The notes under the pieces are model-generated. The model was given only the letters and a program-made list of their open reading frames with translations. It had not been told where the DNA came from and did not search any database. Shown here piece by piece: positions 6,057-16,013 of a stretch of DNA of 24,000 nt; the first letter of the stretch is position 1; each line of letters starts with the position of its first letter. The position numbers and the translations under genes are program-made. The stretch is from Thalassospira sp. TSL5-1 (GTDB lineage Bacteria > Pseudomonadota > Alphaproteobacteria > Rhodospirillales > Thalassospiraceae): the NCBI RefSeq assembly GCF_001907695.1, contig NZ_KV880639.1, positions 50,103 to 74,102 of the forward strand, written 5' to 3'.

Positions 6057-6335
6057 TTACCGACGGCTCATATGCCGGGCAATTTCGCGGCGGGCGATGC
6101 TTTCGGGCAGACGAAACGCCACTTCCAACTGCGCCCGCGACAGCCCGGTCACATCTCGCAAAATCATGTCATCCAGTTTTTCCAGCGCACGGATATGGTT
6201 GCGATCCTCGCGCCGCATTTGCCAGGCTTTATACAGGCGGCGCAATAAACCAACATTCGGTCGCGCAATGGTCTTTTCCGCCGAATGACGGCTGCGGGTT
6301 AGCGACGAAGGTGCATTCATTGTCTGGGTCATCAT
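6057..6335 (-). CDS. DUF1127 small protein
   Basis: I placed the start at ATG 6335 because AGGAGG (plus-strand cctcct, 6341-6346) lies 5 nt upstream. LLRRLYKAWQMRREDRNHIRALEKLDDMILRDVTGLSRAQLE is a classic DUF1127 signature. The gene is divergent from the LysR gene. Confidence 0.75.
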   Translation of the reverse strand: MMTQTMNAPSSLTRSRHSAEKTIARPNVGLLRRLYKAWQMRREDRNHIRALEKLDDMILRDVTGLSRAQLEVAFRLPESIARREIARHMSRR

Positions 6336-6434
6336 TAGTACCTCCTGTGTTGAGACAACCCTGCCGCACCGATATTGATTAATCAAACGAGAAGATTTAA
6401 CCTTATCTATGAGGAAAACTCAAAAGAGAGAAAC

Positions 6435-7334
6435 ATGAATCCGATTTCCATCCCCCTTCCCAATCTGGACCTTGATCTGGCCCGCACCTTTGTTGCCATT
6501 TGCGAAAGCGGCAATTTCTCCCGCGCGGCAGCGCAAGTCCACCGCAGTGCCTCTGCCATCAGCCTGCAGGTCAAGAAACTGGAGGAAATGGTGGGGCGGG
6601 AGCTTTTTTATCGCGAAACCCGCAAAGTGCGCCTCACCCCGGATGGGGAAGTATTGCTGGGCTATGCGCGACGGTTGCTGAAACTAAATGACGAGGCCTT
6701 TTCCAAATTCCTGCACCCGCAATTTAGCGGTCGTGTTCGCTTGGGTGCGCCCAATGATAACGGCATCGTCGCAATGCCGGAAATTTTGCACCGCTTTGCC
6801 ACCACCCACCCGCATGTCGAGGTGGATGTGTATCTGGGCCCAACCCTTAATTTGCGCCGCCGCATCTCCGAGGGCGAGCTTGATATTGCCATCTTCAGCT
6901 ATAACCCGGAACTGGACCCGCAACCGCCCATTCATGCCGAACCGCTGGTGTGGCTGGCGGCACGCAATGGCACAGCACAGGAAAAACGCCCGCTCCCCAT
7001 GGCGCTGGCAGAACCGGGATGTTACTGGCGGGCAATGGCGCTCAAGGCACTGGACGATGCCGGGCTTAATTACCGCATTGCCTATACCAGCGAGTTCTGC
7101 CAGGCCCAAATCGCCGCCGTCCGGGCCGACCTTGCCATTGCCCCACTGCCCATCAGCGTCATTTCCCCGGATCTGGTGCATCTGGGCTCAGCCCACGGCC
7201 TGCCCGATTTGGGCGAATACCGCATGACCCTGGCGAAGCGCGAAGGGACCGGCGAAATAGAAGATGTTCTGGCCGAGCACATGGTGGCGGGTTTTAAAAC
7301 CATCGCCGAACGCGGCATGCGCCTATTTGCGTAA
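6435..7334 (+). CDS. LysR family transcriptional regulator
   Basis: The N-terminal wHTH (LDLARTFVAICESGNFSRAAAQVHRSASAISLQVKKLEEMVGRELFYRETRKVRLTPDGE) is followed by a LysR substrate-binding fold. I prefer ATG 6435 (MNPISIP...) to the 6375 start given in the ORF track. Confidence 0.85.
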   Translation: MNPISIPLPNLDLDLARTFVAICESGNFSRAAAQVHRSASAISLQVKKLEEMVGRELFYRETRKVRLTPDGEVLLGYARRLLKLNDEAFSKFLHPQFSGRVRLGAPNDNGIVAMPEILHRFATTHPHVEVDVYLGPTLNLRRRISEGELDIAIFSYNPELDPQPPIHAEPLVWLAARNGTAQEKRPLPMALAEPGCYWRAMALKALDDAGLNYRIAYTSEFCQAQIAAVRADLAIAPLPISVISPDLVHLGSAHGLPDLGEYRMTLAKREGTGEIEDVLAEHMVAGFKTIAERGMRLFA

Positions 7335-7393
7335 AACCCAAAAGCCGGAGCCAGCAAGGTGGCCCCGGCATTCTGCGTCACGAAAACAACCGC

Positions 7394-8281
7394 TTAACCA
7401 GCAAAATAGTCAGTATTGCGCATATCCTCCAGCAGCGCCGGCCCGGTGGGTTTCCAGCCCAGATTGGCTCTGGTTTTGGCGGCGGAAGCACGCACATTCA
7501 TCTGGGCGAAATGGATGAACCAGGTAAAATAATCTGCCGCTTCCTCTCGCGTCAGGGCTTTTACTGGCAAATTCAACCCCACACCAATTGCGCTGGCAAT
7601 ATCCTTAAACGCTATGCCTTCTTCACCCACCGCGTGATAAACCGGCAATGGGTCCTGCGCTTCTATCGCATCACAAAAGGCCTTTGCCGCATCGACCCGA
7701 TGCACCGCAGGCCACAAATTTTGCCCGTCTTCAATATAGGCCGCCATGCCCTTTTGCCGGGCAAGGCCAATCAGGATCGGTACAAACCCGTGATCCCCCG
7801 CCCCATGAACGGATGGTGGCAAACGCATTAACGATGCCCGCACCCCTTGTTCCCGCAAGGCCAGTGTTGCCTGTTCCGATGCCACACGCGGGATTTTGCT
7901 GCTGACCTGATGGTCTTCGGTGGCAATGCCATCCGTTGCGATTAAACCAATCCCCGATGTCACGATCAAAGGCCGGGACGACCCCGCCAGCACCGCCCCC
8001 ATTTCCGCAATCACCTGTCGGTCATGTTCGCAATTTTCGGCATATTTGGAAAAATCATGATTAAAGGCCGTATGGATCACCGCGTCACACCCGGCCGCCC
8101 CCTTGCGCAGGCTTTCCAGGTCGGTCAGATCCCCGCGATGCACCTCTGCCCCGCTTTGTGCCAGCGCGCGAGCGGATGTGCTTGAACGCACCAGGCCCAA
8201 AACCTTATGCCCCCGTGCGATTAATTCCTGCACCACTGCGCTGCCCACAAACCCCGTAGCTCCTGTTACGAAAACACGCAT
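7394..8281 (-). CDS. NAD(P)-binding SDR-family oxidoreductase/epimerase (atypical SDR, NmrA-like)
   Basis: The start was moved to ATG 8281 (MRVFVTGATGFVGSAVV, a Rossmann GxxGxxG motif) with AGGAG upstream. The 36 residues upstream in the ORF track look non-genic. Confidence 0.85.
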   Translation of the reverse strand: MRVFVTGATGFVGSAVVQELIARGHKVLGLVRSSTSARALAQSGAEVHRGDLTDLESLRKGAAGCDAVIHTAFNHDFSKYAENCEHDRQVIAEMGAVLAGSSRPLIVTSGIGLIATDGIATEDHQVSSKIPRVASEQATLALREQGVRASLMRLPPSVHGAGDHGFVPILIGLARQKGMAAYIEDGQNLWPAVHRVDAAKAFCDAIEAQDPLPVYHAVGEEGIAFKDIASAIGVGLNLPVKALTREEAADYFTWFIHFAQMNVRASAAKTRANLGWKPTGPALLEDMRNTDYFAG

Positions 8282-8419
8282 TGCCGTCTCCTGCTTGCTA
8301 TCAATTACATCTTCCAGGCCATATGAGCCGTTTGAATATGCGCAAGATAGGTGATAGCGATTGGACGAACTATGCGCTAAACTCCGCAATAATTTCGCAT
8401 TCGTCCAAAAGGAAGCTTC

Positions 8420-9343
8420 ATGGACCCGTTATCTGATGTGCTGTCATTGCTCAAGCCGCGCGCCTATATGTCGGCGGGCATGGATATTGCCGGGCCGTGG
8501 GGCATTGATTTTCCTTCTTTGGGCCGGGGGATCAAAACCGGGGCCGTGGTGAAGGGTGACTGCTGGCTAGCGGTTCAGGGCGTAAAAGACCCGGTTCACC
8601 TTAAAACCGGGGACTGCTTTTTGCTGCCACATGGACCGGCCTTTTTTCTTGGCAGCAGCCTGGATGCCGATGCTGTTAAGGCAAAGGATTTTTTTGCCGC
8701 GAACACCGGGTTCGGCCATATTCGCACGGTAAAGGACGGCGGCGACTATCTGATTGCCAGCAGCCGCTTTATCCTCGATGGCACACAGGCTGATATGCTT
8801 CTGGCCCTGCTGCCGCCCATCGTGCATATTCGGGAACAGGGCGACTCTGTTGCGCTACGCCATTCCATTGAACGGATGATGGAAGAAATGCGCTGCAACG
8901 AACCAGGCAGCACCCTTGTGTTGCAAAACCTCGCCCATATGATGCTGGTTCAAGCGCTGCGCCAGCATCTGGATAACGCAAAGGATGGCATTGGCTGGTT
9001 CTTTGCCCTGTCGGACCGACAATTGTCGGCGGCCATTAATGCCATTCACAATGACCCGGCCCATCCCTGGAGTGTCGCCCTTCTGGCGAACCTTGCCGGT
9101 ATGTCCCGCTCCGCCTTTGCCGCCAAATTCAGGGACCGTGTTGGCAAAAGCCCGATGGCATACCTGACCCATTGGCGAATGTTACTGGCAGGGGAAAGGC
9201 TGAAGGCTGCCCGAGAACCGGTTTACGTAATCGCACTGGATCTGGGATACGAATCCGAAAGTGCGTTTAGCACCGCGTTCAAACGCGAAATGGGCGTCTC
9301 ACCCCGGCAATATGGACAGCTCAGCAAGACTCGTGCCGCATAA
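8420..9343 (+). CDS. AraC family transcriptional regulator with N-terminal cupin-like domain
   Basis: The C-terminal AraC HTH pair is present (LLANLAGMSRSAFAAKFRDRVGKSPMAYLTHWRM...IALDLGYESESAFSTAFKREMGVSPRQY). The gene is divergent from the SDR gene. Confidence 0.85.
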   Translation: MDPLSDVLSLLKPRAYMSAGMDIAGPWGIDFPSLGRGIKTGAVVKGDCWLAVQGVKDPVHLKTGDCFLLPHGPAFFLGSSLDADAVKAKDFFAANTGFGHIRTVKDGGDYLIASSRFILDGTQADMLLALLPPIVHIREQGDSVALRHSIERMMEEMRCNEPGSTLVLQNLAHMMLVQALRQHLDNAKDGIGWFFALSDRQLSAAINAIHNDPAHPWSVALLANLAGMSRSAFAAKFRDRVGKSPMAYLTHWRMLLAGERLKAAREPVYVIALDLGYESESAFSTAFKREMGVSPRQYGQLSKTRAA

Positions 9344-9368
9344 CGTGGGATCGTCAAAGCCAACAAAC

Positions 9369-9393
9369 CCCGCCAGATGAATTAACTGGCGGG
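9369..9393 (-). terminator. Hairpin at the convergent junction, probably the terminator of the 97-aa gene
   Basis: An 8-bp stem cccgccag (9369-9376) / ctggcggg (9386-9393) overlaps the stop codon of the minus-strand gene. On the minus strand it is followed by GTTTGTTGGCTTT. Confidence 0.4.
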
Positions 9394-9675
9394 TGCTTCC
9401 TCGTCGGAATAAGGCGCATATACGCTTTCAATCACGGCGTCAGTCCAGCCGATGCGACGCATGCAATCGAGCACGACGGGCGCAATCGCCACTTTCTTTT
9501 CCTTGCCCTTCACGGCCTCGTACTGGGCCTCGAATTTCTTGGGAATTTCAATCTCGCTGCCCTTGGCCACAATCGCCTCAAGCTCCCGCCGCCCCTCGGC
9601 CTCCAGGCTTTCCCAAAGCACACAGCGCGCAGGTGTCCAGGCCGTCGGACTGAAATTCTGGTTTTCTTCGCTCAT
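9382..9675 (-). CDS. Hypothetical acidic 97-aa protein, no family recognised
   Basis: Start set at ATG 9675 (MSEENQNF...) with only a weak RBS. It lies 155 bp downstream of rtcR on the same strand. I see no recognisable motifs. Confidence 0.45.
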   Translation of the reverse strand: MSEENQNFSPTAWTPARCVLWESLEAEGRRELEAIVAKGSEIEIPKKFEAQYEAVKGKEKKVAIAPVVLDCMRRIGWTDAVIESVYAPYSDEEAPAS

Positions 9676-9830
9676 GTGTTTACCCTGAATGACGTGATAA
9701 CAGCCTAGTGATAGGTAGACGGCCGGGGAATGTCCAGAGCATATAGACCTGCAAGAGGTCCCCGTCCCCACACTTCACCGTATAGGGTGACAACTTCGAC
9801 AAGGAGGTCAGCAGCGGTTTTAAAACCATC

Positions 9831-11411
9831 CTATACGGTTTTGGTGCCTGCAATCACGCTCCATTCCAGGCCGAACTTCGATAGATATTTTCGCAGTCGG
9901 TCAGCATCGTTCTGGATACGACGTTTATCGCGGGACTTTGCGTAAAGCATGCGACCGGCCTCGCTAAGACTGGAGGCTTGGCGACATGTGCGGAGTACCA
10001 GGGCCAATTGCACCATATCGAATGGGTCAATGTCGTTTGCTTCCTCCCCCATCAGCGCCTCCACGAGCTTAAAATCGCTATTGGAGCTGGCGCTGCTCCA
10101 GTCGTGCTGAAGGGTTTCGATTTCCGCTTCCACCATCGCCTTGGTGATGCGCCCACGCGGCGAGAGAATGCACAGTCGGCGCACGGAACCCCGGAAATCG
10201 CGGAAATTTCCCGGCCAAGTTGTTGCCGGACTAGTCGCAAATTTCAGATATTTGTCACGGGCGTCCGCGTTGAAGCCCACCTGGTTCCCCAGTTCCTTTT
10301 CCGAGCGGGCCAATTCATAGAGCAAGTTTGACTCGATATCCTCGCGCCGCTCGCGCAGCGGCGGAAGTTCAAAACGCCACATGTTGAGACGCGACAAAAG
10401 ATCGGGCCGAAAACGACCTTGGGAAACAAGTGTCCGCAAATCTCGATTGGCACCTGCAATAATCTGGAAACGGCTGGAAACCTCGTGGTCTGAACCCAAA
10501 GGATAAAACCGTCCAGTCTCGATCGCGTGCAGAATGATTGATTGTTCGCTCAAGCCCAGCTCATCGACCTCGTCTAGAAACAGGATACCGCCATCTGCCT
10601 CCCGTAAAAGGCCGCGACGCTCCGAGCCAGCATGTCCGGTATAACCGCGCTGCTGACCGAAAAGCATAGCCACCGCATCACCTCCGTTCAGCGTCGCGCA
10701 ATTCACATGCACGAGCCTGCCCTTCACGCGGCGGCGATCGAGTTTCAGATTATAGATGCGTTCAGCCAGTTGGCTCTTGCCCGTGCCGGTTTCGCCAAGA
10801 AGCAGGATCGGCTCGTCCGAGTTGCTCGCGACCAGTTCTATCCGGTCGATCAGGGCATTATATGTGTCGTTGCGGGTTTCGATACCGCCCTTCAGTTGGT
10901 CACCATATTCACGCGCCAGCTTATCGAAACGCTGCTGCAGCGCATTGTAGCGGCTGAGATCGAGATCAATGATGTCAAGTTTTGGTTGACCGTCATCCTC
11001 TCGCGGCGGCCCGGTCTGGATCAGGCGTGCCGGCACGTGACGGCTTTCTGTGAGGAGAAACCAGCATATCTGCGCCACATGAGAGCCAGTGGTCAGGTGC
11101 ACATGATACCGCTCCCGGTGTTCATCAAACCCGTATGCACGCGCGAAATCGAAGAGCTTTCCGTAAACCTCCTGAAAGTCCCAAGGGTCCTTCAGGTCGA
11201 GATTGCGCAGCAAGACCTCGGTCTGCGGAGAAACCTTCTCTATCGACCGCTTCACCTGCTGGGCCAGGCGATTAAAATTCATGTCGTACAGGATTTCCAG
11301 CCGCTCGATCGGGAAGTCTTCATGCTCCACCAGACTTACGGTGGGCCGCCACCGCCGTTTCTTACCCATATCGAGCTGCGTTCCGAGAAAACCTATGACA
11401 ACATTTTTCAT
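9831..11411 (-). CDS. rtcR: RtcR-type transcriptional regulator (N-terminal CARF domain, AAA+ bEBP core, C-terminal HTH)
   Basis: The N-terminus VVIGFLGTQLDMGKKRRWRPTVSL...ERLEILYD is RtcR/CARF-like. Walker A is GETGTGKS and Walker B is ILFLDEVDEL. The C-terminus NDADRLRKYLSKFGLEW is typical of RtcR. It is divergent from rsr-rtcB. I prefer ATG 11411 to the TTG at 11423. Confidence 0.9.
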   Translation of the reverse strand: MKNVVIGFLGTQLDMGKKRRWRPTVSLVEHEDFPIERLEILYDMNFNRLAQQVKRSIEKVSPQTEVLLRNLDLKDPWDFQEVYGKLFDFARAYGFDEHRERYHVHLTTGSHVAQICWFLLTESRHVPARLIQTGPPREDDGQPKLDIIDLDLSRYNALQQRFDKLAREYGDQLKGGIETRNDTYNALIDRIELVASNSDEPILLLGETGTGKSQLAERIYNLKLDRRRVKGRLVHVNCATLNGGDAVAMLFGQQRGYTGHAGSERRGLLREADGGILFLDEVDELGLSEQSIILHAIETGRFYPLGSDHEVSSRFQIIAGANRDLRTLVSQGRFRPDLLSRLNMWRFELPPLRERREDIESNLLYELARSEKELGNQVGFNADARDKYLKFATSPATTWPGNFRDFRGSVRRLCILSPRGRITKAMVEAEIETLQHDWSSASSNSDFKLVEALMGEEANDIDPFDMVQLALVLRTCRQASSLSEAGRMLYAKSRDKRRIQNDADRLRKYLSKFGLEWSVIAGTKTV

Positions 11412-11514
11412 GACCGTATCCAAATAGATATATGGCTATAATAAATTATATTATATGGAAAAGACGAAATCCGAAAATACTTATTTTATATATTAATATC
11501 AATAACTTATGAGA

Positions 11515-11535
11515 TTTTTTCTTTTTTCTTTTTTC
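11515..11535 (+). repeat. Three perfect tandem TTTTTTC heptamers in the rtcR-rsr intergenic region
   Basis: Read directly as ttttttc ttttttc ttttttc, 52-72 nt upstream of the rsr start codon. Confidence 0.9.
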
Positions 11536-11586
11536 TGTGCATCCGTCGTGGCAAAACTTGGACATCAAAACAGAAGGAAGAAGCAA

Positions 11587-13143
11587 ATGGCGAACAAATC
11601 CGTGTTTGCGACAATCGTGGGAAAGCTGCTCCCAAAGGCAACAGACACCAATATGCATGGCGCAAAGGCCTATGCCTATGAAGATGAGCACAAGCTGGCG
11701 CAGTTGGCTGTTACGGGTACTTTTGGGGATCTGTTCTATCAGGATGCACAGACTGAACTGGACAAGGTTCTCGAACTTGCCGAACGCGTCGACCCCTATT
11801 TTCTGGCGCAGACCGCAATCTACGCTCGTAAAAAGGGTCACATGAAGGACATGCCAGCCGTGCTGTTGGCGGTTCTTGCCCGCCGTGACCCCGTGCTCTT
11901 TCGTGCCGTCTTTGGCCGCGTCGTCGATAATGGCAAGATGTTGCGCAACTTTGTGCAAGTGGTTCGTTCTGGTCAGACCGGGCGCAAATCTCTGGGAAGT
12001 GCGCCCAAGAGCATGGTGCAGAACTGGCTCAATGGCGCATCAGACCGCGCATTGCTGCAGGCCAATATCGGGAATGCGCCATCGCTGGCTGATGTGCTGA
12101 AGATGGTTCACCCGAAGCCGGTTAGCCGCGAACGCGAAGCCCTGTTTGCCTGGATCATCGGACGCCCTTGCGACGTCGCACTTCTGCCGGAAGCCGTTCG
12201 TGAATGGCTGGCCTTCAAGGAAACTGGCGAAGGCAAAGTGCCAGATGTGCCGTTCCAGATGTTGACCCAGCTTAATCTGTCGACCGAGCATTGGGCCACC
12301 ATCGCCCGCAAGAGCTCGTGGCAGATGGTGCGACAGAACCTGAATACGTTTGAACGCCACGGCGTTTTCAACGATCAGGCAAATGTGAAACATGTGGCCG
12401 AGCTACTTGCCAACCAGCAGGCGATCGCCAAGGCACGTGCGTTTCCCTATCAGTTGATGGTCGCAGCGCAGAACGTCATCGGCAAGGTGCCGCGCGAAAT
12501 CGTGGACGCACTGCATGATGCGATGGAAATCGCAGTGCAGAACGTGCCGCAGGTCGAAGGCTCGGTTGTTGTTTGCCCTGACGTGTCAGGCTCGATGACC
12601 TTTCCGGTCACGGGATATCGCCGCGGCGCGACTTCGACCGTGCGTCATGTGGATGTCGCCGCCCTTGTTGCGGCCGCGTTCCTGCGGACAAACCGGCACT
12701 GCGAGGTACTGCCGTTCGACTTTGACGTGCGAAACGCACGTCTGGAGCCGCGCGACACGATCCTGACGAATGCCGGACGGTTGGCAAAACTTGGGGGTGG
12801 CGGAACGGACTGCTCCGCACCGCTGAAGTGGCTGAACAAGCGCAAAAAGACGCCGGATCTTGTTGTATTCGTCTCGGACAATCAGTCCTGGATGGACGAC
12901 TTGAACGGTTCGCGCTCAACGGGCATGGCCCAGGAATGGGCTGTTTTAAAACAGCGCAACCCGAAGGCAAAGCTGGTGTGCATCGACATCGCGCCTTACG
13001 GCACAACGCAGGTGAAAAACCGTGAAGATGTGTTGAACATCGGCGGATTTTCCGACGCGGTATTCGATCAGATCGCCACCTTCTCCAACGGCCAAAATGG
13101 CCCGGAGCATTGGGTGGAACAGATTAAAAGGATCGAGATTTGA
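11587..13143 (+). CDS. rsr: Ro60-related protein Rsr (TROVE domain plus C-terminal vWA/MIDAS domain)
   Basis: Start set at ATG 11587 (MANKSVFA) behind GAAGGAAG. The TROVE-like N-terminus reads NMHGAKAYAY...GTFGDLFYQDAQ...AIYARKKGHMKDMPAVLLAVLA. The vWA MIDAS motif is CPDVSGSM. The ORF-track start at 11509 would translate the poly-T tract. Confidence 0.9.
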   Translation: MANKSVFATIVGKLLPKATDTNMHGAKAYAYEDEHKLAQLAVTGTFGDLFYQDAQTELDKVLELAERVDPYFLAQTAIYARKKGHMKDMPAVLLAVLARRDPVLFRAVFGRVVDNGKMLRNFVQVVRSGQTGRKSLGSAPKSMVQNWLNGASDRALLQANIGNAPSLADVLKMVHPKPVSREREALFAWIIGRPCDVALLPEAVREWLAFKETGEGKVPDVPFQMLTQLNLSTEHWATIARKSSWQMVRQNLNTFERHGVFNDQANVKHVAELLANQQAIAKARAFPYQLMVAAQNVIGKVPREIVDALHDAMEIAVQNVPQVEGSVVVCPDVSGSMTFPVTGYRRGATSTVRHVDVAALVAAAFLRTNRHCEVLPFDFDVRNARLEPRDTILTNAGRLAKLGGGGTDCSAPLKWLNKRKKTPDLVVFVSDNQSWMDDLNGSRSTGMAQEWAVLKQRNPKAKLVCIDIAPYGTTQVKNREDVLNIGGFSDAVFDQIATFSNGQNGPEHWVEQIKRIEI

Positions 13144-13148
13144 AAACA

Positions 13149-13223
13149 GGTCTGGCGGAATGCTCATGGGACTACATCCTGTCCTTTAGCACATGATCTC
13201 ATGGACACCTTGTCCGCCAGACC
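13149..13223 (+). ncRNA. Y-RNA-like module A (short form)
   Basis: An 11-bp terminal stem ggtctggcgga (13149-13159) / tccgccagacc (13213-13223) encloses the 5' box ATGCTCATGGGACTACAT (13160-13177). An inner hairpin is tgtcc/ggaca (13180-13184 / 13203-13207). The 3' box CCTTG abuts the stem. Confidence 0.55.
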
Positions 13224-13244
13224 TGACCAGACATCTTGAGGAGA

Positions 13245-13376
13245 TGCGGCGAATGCCAGTGGAACTACATCAACTGTAATGCCCATGTCGCGGGTTCGAG
13301 TCCCGCCGTGGTCACGGCCACGTAGCTCAGTCGGTAGAGCAAAGCACTTACGTTTCACAACACACTTGTCGCCGCA
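13245..13376 (+). ncRNA. Y-RNA-like module B with a circularly permuted tRNA-like domain (YrlA-like)
   Basis: The terminal stem is tgcggcga (13245-13252) / tcgccgca (13369-13376). The 5' box is ATGCCAGTGGAACTACAT and the 3' box is CACACTTG. The interior reads T-arm gcggg-TTCGAGT-cccgc (13290-13306), a closed acceptor-like hairpin (13307-13322), and D-arm gctc-AGTCGGTA-gagc (13325-13340). Confidence 0.75.
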
Positions 13377-13398
13377 GCTTTTCCAAGGAAAGCGGAAA

Positions 13399-13484
13399 CA
13401 CATAGGAGGAATGCCCGTGGGACTACATTGGCAACCAGCCTGTTTGAAACAGGCAATGTCTCACAATCCCTTGTCCTCCATCTG
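13399..13484 (+). ncRNA. Y-RNA-like module C (short, with T-loop-like hairpin)
   Basis: The stem ggagga (13405-13410) / tcctcc (13474-13479) is extended by T13403:A13480 and neighbours around a bulged A13404. The 5' box is ATGCCCGTGGGACTACAT and the 3' box is CCCTTG. The inner hairpin is cctg-TTTGAAA-cagg (13439-13453). Confidence 0.6.
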
Positions 13485-13501
13485 AATATGTAAAAGGAAG
13501 A

Positions 13502-13650
13502 TCCTGGCGAATGCTAAAGGAACTACATGGCACAATCGGGAAGGTGTGTGGGTTCAACTCCCCTCCAGGCCAGCGCCCAGACGGCAAACGTACAAGCCAA
13601 AAGCTTGTGCGGGGCGGCCTCCCAACGTTTCTTCTCCTTTGTCGCCGGGA
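13502..13650 (+). ncRNA. Y-RNA-like module D (T-loop hairpin plus long bulged hairpin)
   Basis: The stem is tcctggcga (13502-13510) / tcgccggga (13642-13650). The 5' box is ATGCTAAAGGAACTACAT, and aaagga (13516-13521) pairs with tccttt (13635-13640). The interior has ggg-TTCAACT-ccc (13550-13562) and a long hairpin at 13567-13620 (aggcc..gccc..cgtacaagc / gcttgtgcg gggc ggcct). Confidence 0.6.
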
Positions 13651-13693
13651 ACTGAAAACGAAAATCCGCAATTCGCACTGACAGAAGGAATGA

Positions 13694-13825
13694 TGCGGCG
13701 AATACCAGTGGAACTACATCAACTGTAATGCCCAGGTCGCGGGTTCGACTCCCGCCGTGGTCACGACCACGTAGCTCAGTCGGTAGAGCAGAGCACATAC
13801 GTTTCACAACACACTTGTCGCCGCA
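13694..13825 (+). ncRNA. Y-RNA-like module B' (second copy of the tRNA-like YrlA-type module)
   Basis: This is a copy of module B at +449 nt. The stem is tgcggcga (13694-13701) / tcgccgca (13818-13825) and the box is ATACCAGTGGAACTACAT. The T-arm is gcggg-TTCGACT-cccgc, and the acceptor-like hairpin and D-arm are retained. Confidence 0.75.
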
Positions 13826-13847
13826 GCTTTCTCAAGGAAGGCGAAAA

Positions 13848-13933
13848 CACACAGGAGGAATACCTGTGGGACTACATTGGAAACCAGCCTGTTCGAATCA
13901 GGCAACGTCTCACAATCCATTGTCCTCCGTCTG
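13848..13933 (+). ncRNA. Y-RNA-like module C' (copy of C)
   Basis: The stem is ggagga (13854-13859) / tcctcc (13923-13928) and the box is ATACCTGTGGGACTACAT. The inner hairpin cctg-TTCGAAT-cagg (13888-13902) has a canonical T-loop sequence. C13852:G13929 replaces the T:A pair of module C. Confidence 0.6.
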
Positions 13934-13948
13934 AATGTAAAAGGAATA

Positions 13949-14098
13949 TCCTGGCGAATGCCGAAGGAACTACATGGCACAATCGGGAAGGTGTGTGGGT
14001 TCAACTCCCCTCCAGGCCTGCGCCCAGACGGCAAACGTGCAAGCCAAAAGCTTGTGCGGGGCGGCCTCCCAAATGTTTCTTCTCTTTTGTCGCCCGGA
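13949..14098 (+). ncRNA. Y-RNA-like module D' (copy of D)
   Basis: The stem is tcctggcga (13949-13957) / tcgcccgga (14090-14098), with one C-U mismatch. The box is ATGCCGAAGGAACTACAT. The same T-loop hairpin and long hairpin as in D are present. Confidence 0.55.
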
Positions 14099-14102
14099 CT
14101 CC

Positions 14103-14120
14103 CTTCAAGAAGGCTTGAAG
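14103..14120 (+). other. Perfect 7-bp hairpin directly after the last Y-like module (processing site or weak terminator?)
   Basis: The sequence is cttcaag-aagg-cttgaag. It is followed by cctctattaatt, so there is no clean U-tract. Confidence 0.3.
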
Positions 14121-14305
14121 CCTCTATTAATTGGATTCATGAAACGATGAAAGTTGCAAGCGGGGGTGGCCGCAGGACCACAGATAGACGCACTCGTCAA
14201 AAGTAGCAGGGGACCTGCCGTGTTGGCTTACCCCGACCCGGAACACCCCGGCGGCTGAATATTTGTCTTGCAAATACTCTAGCCCCCAATGCAGAGGAAA
14301 AGATA

Positions 14306-15712
14306 ATGACGGAAGAAAACGGGCTTGAAACCATCACCGGAAATCACTTGAAACAGTGGGGACATGAGCCGGGCAAGCACTTTCCGAAACTGATTGAACG
14401 CGCCAATACCCTGCAAGCCGAGGGCGTGGTCATTGATCAGATTCGCGAAGCGCTTGAAAGCGAGAAAGTTGTTCCTCTCAATCTTCGTGCCAGGGGTGAA
14501 CTGACGTTTCACGAAAATATTCAGATCGCTCACCCCGACGAAGAGAACAATCTCTCCAAGGTTCGTGAAACCATGGTTGAGCTGATGCGCACGCCGACGA
14601 TTGTTGCCGGTGCGATCATGCCCGATGCCTGTCCCGCGGGACCGACAGGTACGATCCCGGTTGGCGGCGTGGTTGCAGCACGCAATGCTATTCACCCTGG
14701 CATGCATTCAGCCGATATCTGTTGCTCGGTTATGATGACCGACCTGGGATATGCAGACCCGAAGACCGTGTTGAATGCTGCACAATCGGTAACGCATTTC
14801 GGTCCGGGCGGTCGCCCGCAGGGCCAGCGTTTCACCGTTTCACTCGCCCTGATGGATGCGTTTCGCGAGAACCCGTTTCTGAACCACCCCAAAGCCTTGC
14901 GCATGGCGCAAGAGCATATGGGCACACAAGGAGACGGGAACCACTTCCTGTTTGTAGGCCGTTCACGCAAAACGGGACGAACGGCGATGATAACCCATCA
15001 CGGTTCGCGCGGTCCGGGTGCGCTTCTCTACAAGCATGGCATGACGGTTGCTGAACGTTTCCGCAAGCAGCTTTCACCGCAGACCCTGAAGCAAAATGCC
15101 TGGATTCCGGTCGATACACGGGAGGGACAGGACTATTGGGACGCCTTGCAACTGATCCGCAAATGGACAAAGGCCAACCATAATGCCATCCATCAAGCCA
15201 CCGTTGAGACGGCCGGGGTGCAGGACATGGGCGAGCGTTTCTGGAACGAACATAATTTCGTCTTCAAACGTGGCGATCTCTTCTATCACGGCAAAGGTGC
15301 CACGCCTGCCTGGGACGGTTATGCAAGTGATGCAACGGGTCTGACCCTCATCCCTCTCAACATGTCCGAGCCTGTGCTGGTGGTGCGTGGCAAGGATGCC
15401 GAAACGGGCCTTGGCTTCAGCCCGCATGGCGCGGGGCGCAATTTTTCCCGCTCCGAGCATCGCCGCCGTTCAGAAAACACGACGCCGGAAGCCATGCTGA
15501 AGGCGGAAACGGACGGGCTGGATATCCGCTTCCACGCCGGTGGAATTGACATTTCCGAACTGCCGTCCGGCTACAAGAGCGCCGAAAACGTGGTGTCTCA
15601 GATCGAGTCCTACGGTCTCGCAGATATTGACGACTATATCGACCCGTATGGCTGCATCATGGCCGGCAATGTTCCGCCTGTCTGGCGGCTACGCAAAGCG
15701 GGCAGACGATGA
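14306..15712 (+). CDS. rtcB: RtcB-family RNA 3'-phosphate/2',3'-cyclic phosphate ligase, divergent long form (468 aa)
   Basis: The RBS AGAGGAAAAG precedes the ATG. RtcB motifs are retained: MPDAC, HSADICCS (the D-x-x-C metal site), GDGNHF, HHGSRGPG, EHNF and PHGAGR (guanylylated His motif). It is about 60 aa longer at the N-terminus than the 408-aa E. coli enzyme (length from memory). Confidence 0.9.
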   Translation: MTEENGLETITGNHLKQWGHEPGKHFPKLIERANTLQAEGVVIDQIREALESEKVVPLNLRARGELTFHENIQIAHPDEENNLSKVRETMVELMRTPTIVAGAIMPDACPAGPTGTIPVGGVVAARNAIHPGMHSADICCSVMMTDLGYADPKTVLNAAQSVTHFGPGGRPQGQRFTVSLALMDAFRENPFLNHPKALRMAQEHMGTQGDGNHFLFVGRSRKTGRTAMITHHGSRGPGALLYKHGMTVAERFRKQLSPQTLKQNAWIPVDTREGQDYWDALQLIRKWTKANHNAIHQATVETAGVQDMGERFWNEHNFVFKRGDLFYHGKGATPAWDGYASDATGLTLIPLNMSEPVLVVRGKDAETGLGFSPHGAGRNFSRSEHRRRSENTTPEAMLKAETDGLDIRFHAGGIDISELPSGYKSAENVVSQIESYGLADIDDYIDPYGCIMAGNVPPVWRLRKAGRR

Positions 15713-15902
15713 GAGGATTGTCAGTTCGAGCAGCCGAACCTTGCCGGCACTGCCAAATAACGTTGTTGCCGAGAAAAAGGACTGCATTGCATCTTCCAGC
15801 CGCAATCAGCAGGATGCCCGGCCACAAGACAAACGTAACCGCGCCGAGACCCCGGAGTTTTCGGCTCATCCCCGTCCATTGCAAGCACATTTTGCATAAA
15901 GC

Positions 15903-15932
15903 AAAAGCCCGGCTCGTGAGAACCGGGCTTTT
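15903..15932. terminator. Bidirectional rho-independent terminator between the rtcB unit and tRNA-Met
   Basis: A 10-bp stem aaaagcccgg / ccgggctttt has A/T runs serving both strands. It lies 4 nt beyond the tRNA 3' end. Confidence 0.7.
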
Positions 15933-15936
15933 GAAT

Positions 15937-16013
15937 TGGTAGCGGAGGAGGGACTTGAACCCCCGACACGCGGATTATGATTCCGCTGCTCTAACCAGCT
16001 GAGCTACTCCGCC
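15937..16013 (-). tRNA. tRNA-Met (anticodon CAU), elongator-like; tRNA-Ile2(k2C) cannot be excluded
   Basis: The reverse complement folds as a cloverleaf. The acceptor is ggcggag/ctccgct (with G1-U72) and the D-arm is gctc-agctggtta-gagc. The anticodon arm is gcgga-AUCAUAA-tccgc and the T-arm is ggggg-TTCAAGT-ccctc. The CCA end is encoded. It lacks the initiator hallmarks (no 3 G-C pairs in the anticodon stem, no 1:72 mismatch). Confidence 0.9.

Follow-up and report, generated by a model that had tools for sequence, protein, structure and literature searches.

Results and discussion

In a 24-kb stretch of Thalassospira sp. TSL5-1 DNA, hereafter the window, a spacer of 1,162 nt separates the stop of rsr, the gene for the Ro60/TROVE ortholog Rsr (13143), from the start of the RNA ligase gene rtcB (14306); all coordinates count from the window start. 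We put at roughly 0.82 the probability that this spacer consists of seven Y RNA genes and one decayed relic, inside an rsr–(Y RNA)n–rtcB unit beside a divergent rtcR gene. Judged by their sequences, the seven genes are best read as two YrlA RNAs (modules B and B'), two RNAs of an undescribed tRNA-like class (D and D') and three short RNAs, two of which carry a T-arm-like hairpin (C and C') and one of which, A, opens the array. The assignment rests on a closing stem common to all seven modules, on compensatory base changes among related loci, and on full-length matches of B and B' to the YrlA family.

Shared closing stem of the seven modules

The box ATRC-N4-GGRACTACAT occurs seven times in the window, each time on the + strand and with 0 mismatches. 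Dinucleotide shuffles give an expectation of 0.01, and a count of seven was reached in none of 100 shuffles. Every box stands directly 3' of a 5' arm, the complementary arm follows 60–140 nt further downstream, and (C/T)TTG immediately precedes all seven 3' arms. A sequence-only reading of this DNA had proposed seven units of one architecture in the spacer, which the boxes, the paired ends and the (C/T)TTG elements confirm. Its terminal stems stand as described for B, C and D, whereas the stem of A proved longer and that of D' holds one mismatch. In A it comprises 13 bp (13147–13159 and 13213–13225) with 100% complementarity, i.e. a perfect inverted repeat; the stems measure 8 bp in B and B', 6 bp in C and C', and 9 bp in D and D'.

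Inside the terminal stem lies a second helix of 8 bp (helix 2), the 5' strand of which is made of three bases and GGRAC and the 3' strand of GUYUC and three bases. The common closing architecture thus runs from a stem of 6–13 bp through an internal loop (5' AAUGC, 3' N3-6-YUUG) into the 8-bp helix with its conserved G-U pair, and ends in UACA. Two flavours of this stem are seen in alignments A1 (D-type modules) and A2 (63 short modules): the short modules read ..GGA-AUGC..GGGAC with GUCUC..YUUG-UCC, the long tRNA-like modules ..CGA-AUGC..GGAAC with GUUUC..YUUG-UCG. The distal part is class-specific, with a different inner domain in A, B/B', C/C' and D/D', so that the four structural classes named by the earlier reading are real.

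The YrlA consensus of Rfam contains cgaAUGC..GgaaCUAc on its 5' side and cUuGucGccg on its 3' side. Because both elements are present there, box and (C/T)TTG correspond to the YrlA closing stem, which is held to be the Ro60-binding part. The description of the units as Y-RNA-like is borne out by this shared stem and by the alignment of B and B' to the full YrlA model (E ~1e-14). The additional likeness to metazoan Y RNAs fared less well: YUUG is conserved on the 3' side, but the 'CAC' before it is peculiar to B, and the metazoan family was not among the matches at E ≤ 10 in a permissive Rfam scan of 13100–14350. We take RF00019 to be that family. In the broad sense, Y RNAs are RNAs of ~80–130 nt whose ends pair in a stem with a conserved Ro60-binding site and which carry a distal loop domain (PMC4201824). 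All seven modules, 75–150 nt in length, show paired ends, the stem of the presumed Ro60 site and a distal loop domain.

Covariation among related loci and a covariance model

Eighty related rsr loci (L-numbers) served as comparison set, giving 81 sources with the window. The strict box pattern is found in 75 of the 80 loci, only on the rsr strand and only downstream of rsr. In 242 modules from the 81 loci, the segment best complementary to the 5' arm is 9 bp long at the median, compared to ~6 bp for control anchors, and TTG, which was not used in choosing the partner, precedes this complement in 83% of cases versus 1.4% for the controls. The 3' strand of helix 2 was located by the conserved GUYUC only, not by complementarity. 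In this helix the purine position of GGRAC and the opposing Y change in concert (A-U 45, G-C 35, A-C 4), the three variable pairs are 83–95% paired, a value reached in none of 2000 shuffles, and one G-U pair is kept in 74 of 84 distinct combinations.

Alignment A2 is paired in 98.5% of its cells, with compensatory change in 10 of 17 pairs; no shuffle out of 500 was as good, and slid controls reached 35–59%. The structure proposed for alignment A1 has 48 pairs, with 94.5% of the cells paired and compensatory changes in 26 of them, again with 0 of 500 shuffles as good (slid controls, 45–57%). RNAalifold mis-drew the T arm of the D-type alignment and missed two long-range helices, P and H, which were tested separately. 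In raw MAFFT columns P and H are only 77–79% paired. In an alignment-free test the own partner pairs better than the partners of other sequences, a result matched by 0 of 2000 permutations, while control region pairs gave 401 and 13 of 2000. Covariation among the modules and orthologous spacers supports the terminal stem, helix 2 and the D-type helices.

A covariance model (R1) was built from the 63 short modules; these include A, C and C', whose match is partly by construction, whereas B, B', D and D' took no part in the training. Run on the window with filters off, R1 identifies just the seven modules of the array (64.3–29.4 bits, E 5e-14 to 2e-5), and the next-best match, at 15 bits, is the reverse strand of the near-palindromic A. 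At E ≤ 0.01 the 80 loci yield 296 matches, every one of them downstream of rsr and on its strand. Scores fall into class ranges of 63–83 bits for A-type, 47–57 for C-type, 33–51 for YrlA and 27–37 for D-type modules, and each module of the window lies within the range of its own class.

That architecture and covariation are conserved across the 80 loci also argues against reading the region as decayed tRNA genes or tRNA-derived repeats devoid of present function, or as small-protein genes, an explanation that we find scarcely credible. T-arm and D-arm sequences are indeed present, and open reading frames (ORFs) of 41–109 aa overlap the region. Yet ARAGORN and the Rfam tRNA model find no tRNA within the array of the window, and the arms are permuted, T before D. 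The seven longest spacer ORFs are without a Pfam match, which bears out the earlier statement that the spacer holds no credible coding sequence, and the ORF that opens at the ATG of the D box is not kept in D'.

Four module classes

Rfam was scanned at the gathering threshold on the window in addition to the permissive scan, and YrlA is seen in the latter only, where B and B' match the family at the scores listed in Table 1; the check with Rfam covariance models proposed earlier gave, for these two modules, scores just under the gathering threshold of 69 bits. The alignments span 13246–13378 (B) and 13695–13827 (B') and cover the full model, positions 1–114. Hallmarks of YrlA are T-arm-like and D-arm-like stem-loops with an acceptor-like stem-loop between them, a GNCGAA(N0-1)G motif, and a gene position no more than 4 kb from rsr, on the rsr strand (PMC4201824). 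In B the T arm is found at 13290–13306, the acceptor-like stem-loop at 13307–13322 and the D arm at 13322–13341; in B and B' the T, acceptor-like and D elements of the model are matched by GCGGGUUCGAGUCCCGC, CGUGGUCACGGCCACG and GUAGCUCAGUCGGUAGAGCA, respectively. The motif is present in the 5' closing strand as GGCGAAUG at 13248–13255 (B) and GGCGAAUA at 13697–13704 (B'), and the two modules lie on the + strand 102 and 551 nt past the rsr stop.

The D-type modules are ~150 nt long. In the structure that we propose, they combine a T-arm-like hairpin (GGGUUCAACUCCC) with a UUCAACU loop, a D-like stem CGCCC/GGGCG, the D-like loop AGACGGCAAAC of which holds an inserted, variable hairpin, and the helices P and H, which cross each other. 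Against the YrlA family D and D' reach only E ~5, and the acceptor-like hairpin is replaced by helix P. Sequence comparison therefore places them in a related but separate, conserved ~150-nt family that is absent from Rfam, and the D-type would be a tRNA mimic in which a long-range helix takes the place of the YrlA acceptor-like hairpin. The D-type signature CCCAGACGGCAAA is found in 49 of the 81 sources. Of these, 47 have a single copy, and the window and Martelella have two each; the more distant loci (55–58% Rsr identity) lack it.

Modules A, C and C' gave no match, to YrlA or otherwise, in the permissive Rfam scan (E ≤ 10). A is a short, YrlB-like Y RNA with a small distal hairpin and neither T nor D arm; it starts 3 nt past the rsr stop, and its helix 2 is CAUGGGA/UCUCAUG. 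The minimum-free-energy fold of A differs from the structure supported by the family. In most loci an A-type module comes first, 3–10 nt past the rsr stop, and this is the best conserved class. C and C' carry a T-arm-like hairpin only, consisting of a 5-bp stem and a T-loop-like 7-nt loop. In C' and in orthologs the hairpin reads GCCUG-UUCGAAU-CAGGC, of which the GCCUG-UUUGAAA-CAGGC of C is a mutated form (the loop differs at 13445 and 13449), and covarying versions, for example GCGG-UUCGAAC-CCGC, are seen in relatives.

Table 1 Features of the rsr–rtcB locus in the window. Box starts are from the exact pattern search (+ strand); scores are in bits.
Feature	Position	Strand	Box start	Supporting evidence
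rtcR	9831..11423	-		Pfam RtcR 247.5; Sigma54_activat 132.1
rsr (Ro60/TROVE ortholog, 518 aa)	11587..13143	+		Pfam vWA_Ro60 and TROVE
Module A	13147..13225	+	13160	R1 64.3, E 4.7e-14; perfect inverted repeat; fold z-score -5.3
Module B (YrlA-type)	13245..13376	+	13253	Rfam YrlA RF02553 67.2, E 6.7e-15; R1 37.5
Module C	13405..13479	+	13411	R1 49.9; alignment A2
Module D (D-type)	13502..13650	+	13511	R1 29.4; Rfam YrlA only 15.6
Module B' (YrlA-type)	13694..13825	+	13702	Rfam YrlA 65.3, E 2.3e-14; R1 34.4
Module C'	13854..13928	+	13860	R1 51.7; T-loop-like UUCGAAU retained
Module D' (D-type)	13949..14098	+	13958	R1 32.2; Rfam YrlA only 15.9
Element X (probable degenerate module)	14161..14291 (about)	+		R1 only 7.6, E 4.8
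rtcB (RNA ligase, divergent subfamily)	14306..15712	+		Pfam RtcB 118.5, residues 196-451
tRNA-Met gene	15937-16013	-		Convergent with rtcB; sole Rfam match at gathering threshold (15940-16013)

Duplication and decay within the array

The earlier reading was right in taking B', C' and D' for copies of B, C and D. The second set is a 449-nt tandem copy of the first (92–96% identity in a repeat search), and pairwise alignment gives 38 differences in 417 columns. Identities amount to 95.5% for B and B', 90.7% for C and C', and 94.7% for D and D'. The closest relative, L001, is a Thalassospira metagenome-assembled genome with a 96% identical Rsr; the window modules B, C, D and their copies are 94–95.5% identical to its orthologs, and the rsr DNA is 93.6% identical. 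Since the copies diverge about as much as the orthologs, the duplication is estimated to date from roughly the time when the two strains separated. In L001 the modules are ordered A-B-C-D, and D is joined directly to the sequence found downstream of D' in the window, with no second set. We attribute the count of seven, by this sequence comparison, to a recent tandem duplication of B-C-D.

It is possible, although we hold it to be less likely than not, that a single set of modules, either A, B, C and D or some mixture of the copies, is functional and that the duplicates are redundant and decaying, in which case the repertoire would be four rather than seven. L001, which carries a single set followed by element X, points this way, but its contig has a coverage of 3.8x and a repeat may have been collapsed in assembly. 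C is without the T-loop-like sequence that C', L001 and the Martelella locus (L015) retain, D' has the stem mismatch, D departs from a near-invariant CCGAAGG, and element X shows that modules decay in this locus. Conversely, both duplicated sets keep the architecture, and all six duplicated modules stay within the R1 range of their own class. After a divergence of ~5–9%, as between orthologs, the stems are intact, and several of the changes preserve pairing, e.g. from U-G to U-A in the acceptor-like stem of B/B'.

Element X, a probable degenerate eighth module, keeps a GGGGG/CCCCC stem and a CGCAGGAC/GUCUUGCA helix, while its Ro box is mutated (AAUGC to GUGGC, UACA to CACA, CUUG to CUAG). The 207 nt between D' and rtcB align to the region that precedes rtcB in Martelella, where 7442–7577 of L015 forms an intact module (R1 27.3 bits) of a type, fam5, that recurs in 9 loci. 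The start of element X is conserved in L001 up to the end of the contig.

The Martelella array as a whole reads A-D-B-C-D2-X, with D2 ~80% identical to the other D copies. To judge from such sequences, the arrays evidently undergo repeated rearrangement and duplication. D2 lies at approximately 7205–7360 of L015 and has the box GAAAGAAC; it was missed by the box pattern and by R1 at E ≤ 0.01.

Array size among relatives

R1 counts one module in 3 loci, two in 14, three in 20, four in 24, five in 7, six in 6, seven in 3, eight in 1 and nine in 1, with none in one locus. The median across the 80 loci is four, and the counts are lower bounds, as some contigs end early and the second D-type module of L015 was missed. 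The largest arrays belong to an Aliishimia genome (9 modules) and to Aliisedimentitalea sp. MJ-SS2 (8 modules). The commonest single order, in 6 of the 80 loci, is short–YrlA–short–D, equal to A-B-C-D. Neighbouring modules are separated by a median of 24 nt, and rtcB usually starts ~25 nt past the last module. Single-linkage clustering lumped all modules together and was replaced by community clustering of the inner domains, which yields at least seven recurrent distal-domain families across the clade. For 12 loci examined at the gathering threshold, Rfam reports 0–2 YrlA per locus versus 4–9 modules with R1.

By these sequence counts the four-class set is standard for the clade, and seven modules are near the top of the range, not unique. 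The earlier view of seven as exceptional does not hold, given that relatives carry 1–9 and that seven arose here from one tandem duplication. Published work describes 'at least two' Y RNAs per species, and 355 YrlA-like sequences in 276 genomes (PMC4201824). Multi-gene Y RNA arrays were not described in PMC4201824, 10.1101/312249, PMC7790460 or PMC12135203, nor found by full-text searches. Y RNAs that adjoin rsr within rsr-yrlBA-rtcBA are on record (PMC4201824, PMC7790460). The kind of locus is thus already known, and its size and class diversity exceed the described cases ('at least two', PMC4201824) yet are typical of the clade.

tRNA genes among the modules and viral contigs

Genuine tRNA genes stand among the modules, on the same strand, in 37 of the 80 related loci (including L005, L006, L008, L010, L011, L013, L014, L019, L024, L035, L061 and L064; for example at 6982–7056 and 7246–7320 of L008), and none is embedded in the arrays of the window, L001 or L015. 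Their identities form a narrow set, with Asn(GUU) in 24 cases, Lys(UUU/CUU) in 15, Gln(UUG) in 7, Pro(UGG/CGG) in 4 and Phe(GAA) in 2, in addition to two calls without definite identity. Usually tRNA-Lys or tRNA-Gln follows the first YrlA and tRNA-Asn the D-type module. Anticodon nucleases and contact-dependent tRNases often target the tRNAs for Lys(UUU), Gln(UUG) and Asn(GUU). From sequence, the pattern may fit Rsr adaptors devoted to damaged tRNAs, or tRNA decoys.

Five large viral contigs (L131, L119, L135, L148 and L097) hold rsr homologs of 39–51% identity together with 2–7 R1 modules. L131 (IMGVR_UViG_3300034782_000062, a 183-kb contig; region 6214–12698) has 7 modules, L148 and L119 have 3 each. 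The modules of L131, L119 and L135 are embedded in arrays of 17–26 tRNA genes. A tmRNA gene lies nearby in L097.

This interleaving, in related arrays and in large phage contigs alike, is what would be expected if the tRNA-like modules were mainly decoys or inhibitors of tRNA-targeting nucleases, or spare substrates of RtcB, and not tethers of Rsr. In Salmonella, moreover, RtcR is activated by tRNA fragments and a decoy role has been proposed for YrlA (PMC7790460). We nevertheless consider such a role as the main one unlikely. The array of the window is without a tRNA gene, A is without a tRNA-like domain, and C and C' have a single T-arm-like hairpin. The YrlA-type closing stem is kept in every module, which argues that Rsr binding is central; a decoy function is, furthermore, compatible with the tether model.

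The locus and its expression signals

The linkage of rtcR, rsr and rtcB noted in the earlier reading is confirmed by the Pfam assignments (Table 1). The divergent activator gene rtcR encodes an RtcR/CARF-like domain and a sigma-54 interaction AAA+ domain. Over 518 aa, Rsr shares 100% identity with the Thalassospira sp. TSL5-1 TROVE protein. An ORF from 11509 (544 aa) is probably an over-extension by 26 codons, with the true start at 11587, because database homologs have 518 aa; a purine-rich AGGAAG, resembling a ribosome-binding site, precedes the ATG at 11587. Nearly all closer relatives (L002–L065) that reach rtcB share the order divergent rtcR, rsr, Y RNAs, rtcB, and in most of them an RtcB ortholog, 70–87% identical, lies downstream of the array. 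Rsr and RtcB both score far under the NCBIfam equivalog cut-offs and belong to divergent subfamilies. A 77-aa ORF (15709–15942, +) that overlaps the rtcB stop and runs into tRNA-Met is probably spurious, having no family match and no homolog in the 80 loci.

Outside Thalassospira, Rsr is most similar to homologs in Martelella and in a Rhizobiaceae genome (88%); those of many genomes in the Roseobacter group come next (~75%). We take Thalassospira to be a member of Rhodospirillales. That Rsr and RtcB are nearest to Martelella, a Rhizobiaceae genome (Rsr only) and the Roseobacter group (~70–88% identity) suggests, on sequence similarity, that the whole rsr–array–rtcB unit moved between orders. 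The GC content of the unit is unremarkable. A plasmid origin was considered and dropped, as a megablast of rsr through rtcB against a plasmid collection gave no match.

Upstream of rsr, the window and L001–L044 share conserved blocks, namely TATCC..GATA..GATA repeats adjoining rtcR, a tract of TTTTTCT and, ~35 nt ahead of the start codon of rsr, CRTGNCAAAAC. A sigma-54 motif was not found in 44 of these 45 sources, and L026 has one weak match with 3 mismatches. The sole nearby match in the window, with 2 mismatches, was rejected, since it is a minus-strand site and related loci do not conserve its second G. Inside the array there is no sigma-70-like promoter, and the sole terminator-like site on the + strand is a weak 5-bp hairpin at 14111–14123 (AGGCTTGAAGCCT) without a proper U tract. 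This hairpin stands just past D', and a similar sequence is found at the same position in L001 and L015. The absence of an internal promoter or convincing terminator, the tight packing, and the precedents in Salmonella and Deinococcus (PMC7790460, PMC4201824) suggest by analogy that the array would be co-transcribed with rsr and rtcB.

Tight packing also invites another view, in which the units would be structured elements repeated within the operon mRNA and would act in cis, as stabilisers, attenuators or processing sites, rather than as free RNAs. The short spacers, the small distance from the last module to rtcB and the start of A right behind the rsr stop agree with this. We judge it very unlikely, as B and B' are full-length homologs of YrlA, a discrete RNA bound by Rsr (PMC4201824), and as the distal domains, including tRNA-like arms, covary and would be needless for a simple stabiliser. 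Modules are, in addition, found in phage tRNA arrays, with no rtcB in the fetched stretches.

Several points weigh against the assignment to seven Y RNA genes. Complementarity was the criterion for choosing the 3' arms of the terminal stems, which biases the pair counts of this helix towards pairing, and the shuffle controls leave the shared ancestry of the sequences in place. B and B' remain 2–4 bits under the YrlA gathering score (69), with orthologous modules in relatives at 71–85 bits. The A-C mismatch with which helix 2 of D opens, the lost UUCGAAU loop of C, the stem mismatch of D' and the degenerate state of X may indicate decay in some copies. Finally, despite the RtcR-type activator, the canonical sigma-54 -24/-12 element (TGGCAC-N5-TTGCW) has no + strand match with ≤2 mismatches in 11424–11586.

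Comparison with known Y RNA systems

The nearest parallel is the rsr-yrlBA-rtcBA operon of Salmonella Typhimurium, which RtcR controls (PMC7790460; Chen et al. 2013, cited in PMC4201824). Both loci have a divergent rtcR and rsr followed by Y RNA genes on the same strand and by rtcB, and both combine a tRNA-like YrlA with a short Y RNA. In contrast to the two Y RNAs of Salmonella, the window holds seven and a relic in four classes; its rtcB has no rtcA downstream in the window, no canonical sigma-54 motif was found, and Rsr and RtcB are of divergent subfamilies.

In Salmonella and M. smegmatis, YrlA itself (Rfam RF02553, PMC4201824) exists as a separate RNA in complex with Rsr (PMC4201824); its crystal structure is the subject of bioRxiv 10.1101/312249. 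B and B' correspond to it over the whole model, including T arm, acceptor-like stem-loop, D arm and GNCGAA(N)G, and all seven modules share the closing stem AUGC..GGRACUAC with YUUGUC. D and D' (~16 bits) differ from YrlA by the long-range helix in place of the acceptor-like hairpin and by the hairpin inside the D-like loop, A by lacking a tRNA-like domain, and C and C' by having the T-arm-like hairpin alone. We know of no ligand for the 'effector' domain at the distal end of YrlA. Studies of bacterial Y RNAs draw on three species, each with about two such RNAs.

In Deinococcus radiodurans, Yrn1 and Yrn2 likewise provide several Y RNAs beside rsr, one tRNA-like and one a simple hairpin (PMC4201824). 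Their co-transcription with tRNA-Asp matches the tRNA genes in arrays related to ours, but they lie upstream of rsr, belong to a separate lineage and have a more metazoan-like Ro-binding helix (PMC4201824); a linkage to rtcB in Deinococcus was not described in the literature examined. Vertebrates have 2–4 Y RNAs (PMC4201824) and C. elegans many stem-bulge RNAs (sbRNAs; PMC4726728). Metazoan Y RNAs and nematode sbRNAs resemble the present set in being a small family with one Ro-binding closing stem and differing distal loop domains, whereas metazoan Y RNAs have no tRNA-like domains and form separate Pol III units instead of an operon array.

Phage-encoded Ro60 with Y RNAs has been reported for 22 phages (PMC4201824), for the Thermus phage phiLo with Yrl1 and Yrl2 (PMC12135203), and jumbo-phage TROVE proteins are known (PMC7824862). 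The viral contigs described above agree with these loci in having rsr homologs followed by several R1-detected modules; unlike in the window, phage modules are scattered through tRNA arrays and not packed between rsr and rtcB.

Proposed function and significance

In the mechanism that we propose, the array transcript would be cut into RNAs of 71–150 nt, and Rsr would bind the shared stem and thereby stabilise each of them. The differing distal domains could then give Rsr different partners, or gate Rsr differently, by analogy to Yrn1 of Deinococcus, which tethers Rsr to PNPase (PMC4201824). The tRNA-like domains might engage tRNA-binding factors, or act as decoys, in a response to tRNA damage such as the one sensed by RtcR in Salmonella. 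A set of interchangeable adaptors, as envisaged in the sequence-only reading, is a reasonable inference.

A wider proposal is offered more speculatively, and we regard it as less likely than not. The rsr–rtcB loci of marine Alphaproteobacteria, and of some large phages, may constitute an expandable Y RNA toolkit with one Rsr-binding stem and at least seven distal domains, among them the undescribed crossing-helix D-type tRNA mimic, often interleaved with spare tRNA-Asn, tRNA-Lys and tRNA-Gln. Such a toolkit could target Rsr, and perhaps RtcB, to damaged RNAs or partners in a class-specific manner, or supply class-specific nuclease decoys. It would grow and shrink by tandem duplication and decay in an arms race over tRNA cleavage, and the array of the window would be a snapshot of one expansion.

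For annotation, the practical consequence in the 12 loci compared is that Rfam-based searches report fewer Y RNA genes than the shared-stem model finds modules. For the biology of Rsr, the locus and its relatives form a natural comparative series, in which one Rsr-binding stem is joined to four distal domains here and to seven or more recurrent ones across the clade. The series includes a widespread ~150-nt class missing from Rfam and shows frequent interleaving of tRNA-Asn, tRNA-Lys and tRNA-Gln genes inside an RNA-ligase unit. It thereby renders two questions testable, namely whether each Y RNA class recruits a different partner and whether the Rsr/Y RNA/RtcB system is aimed at specific cleaved tRNAs.

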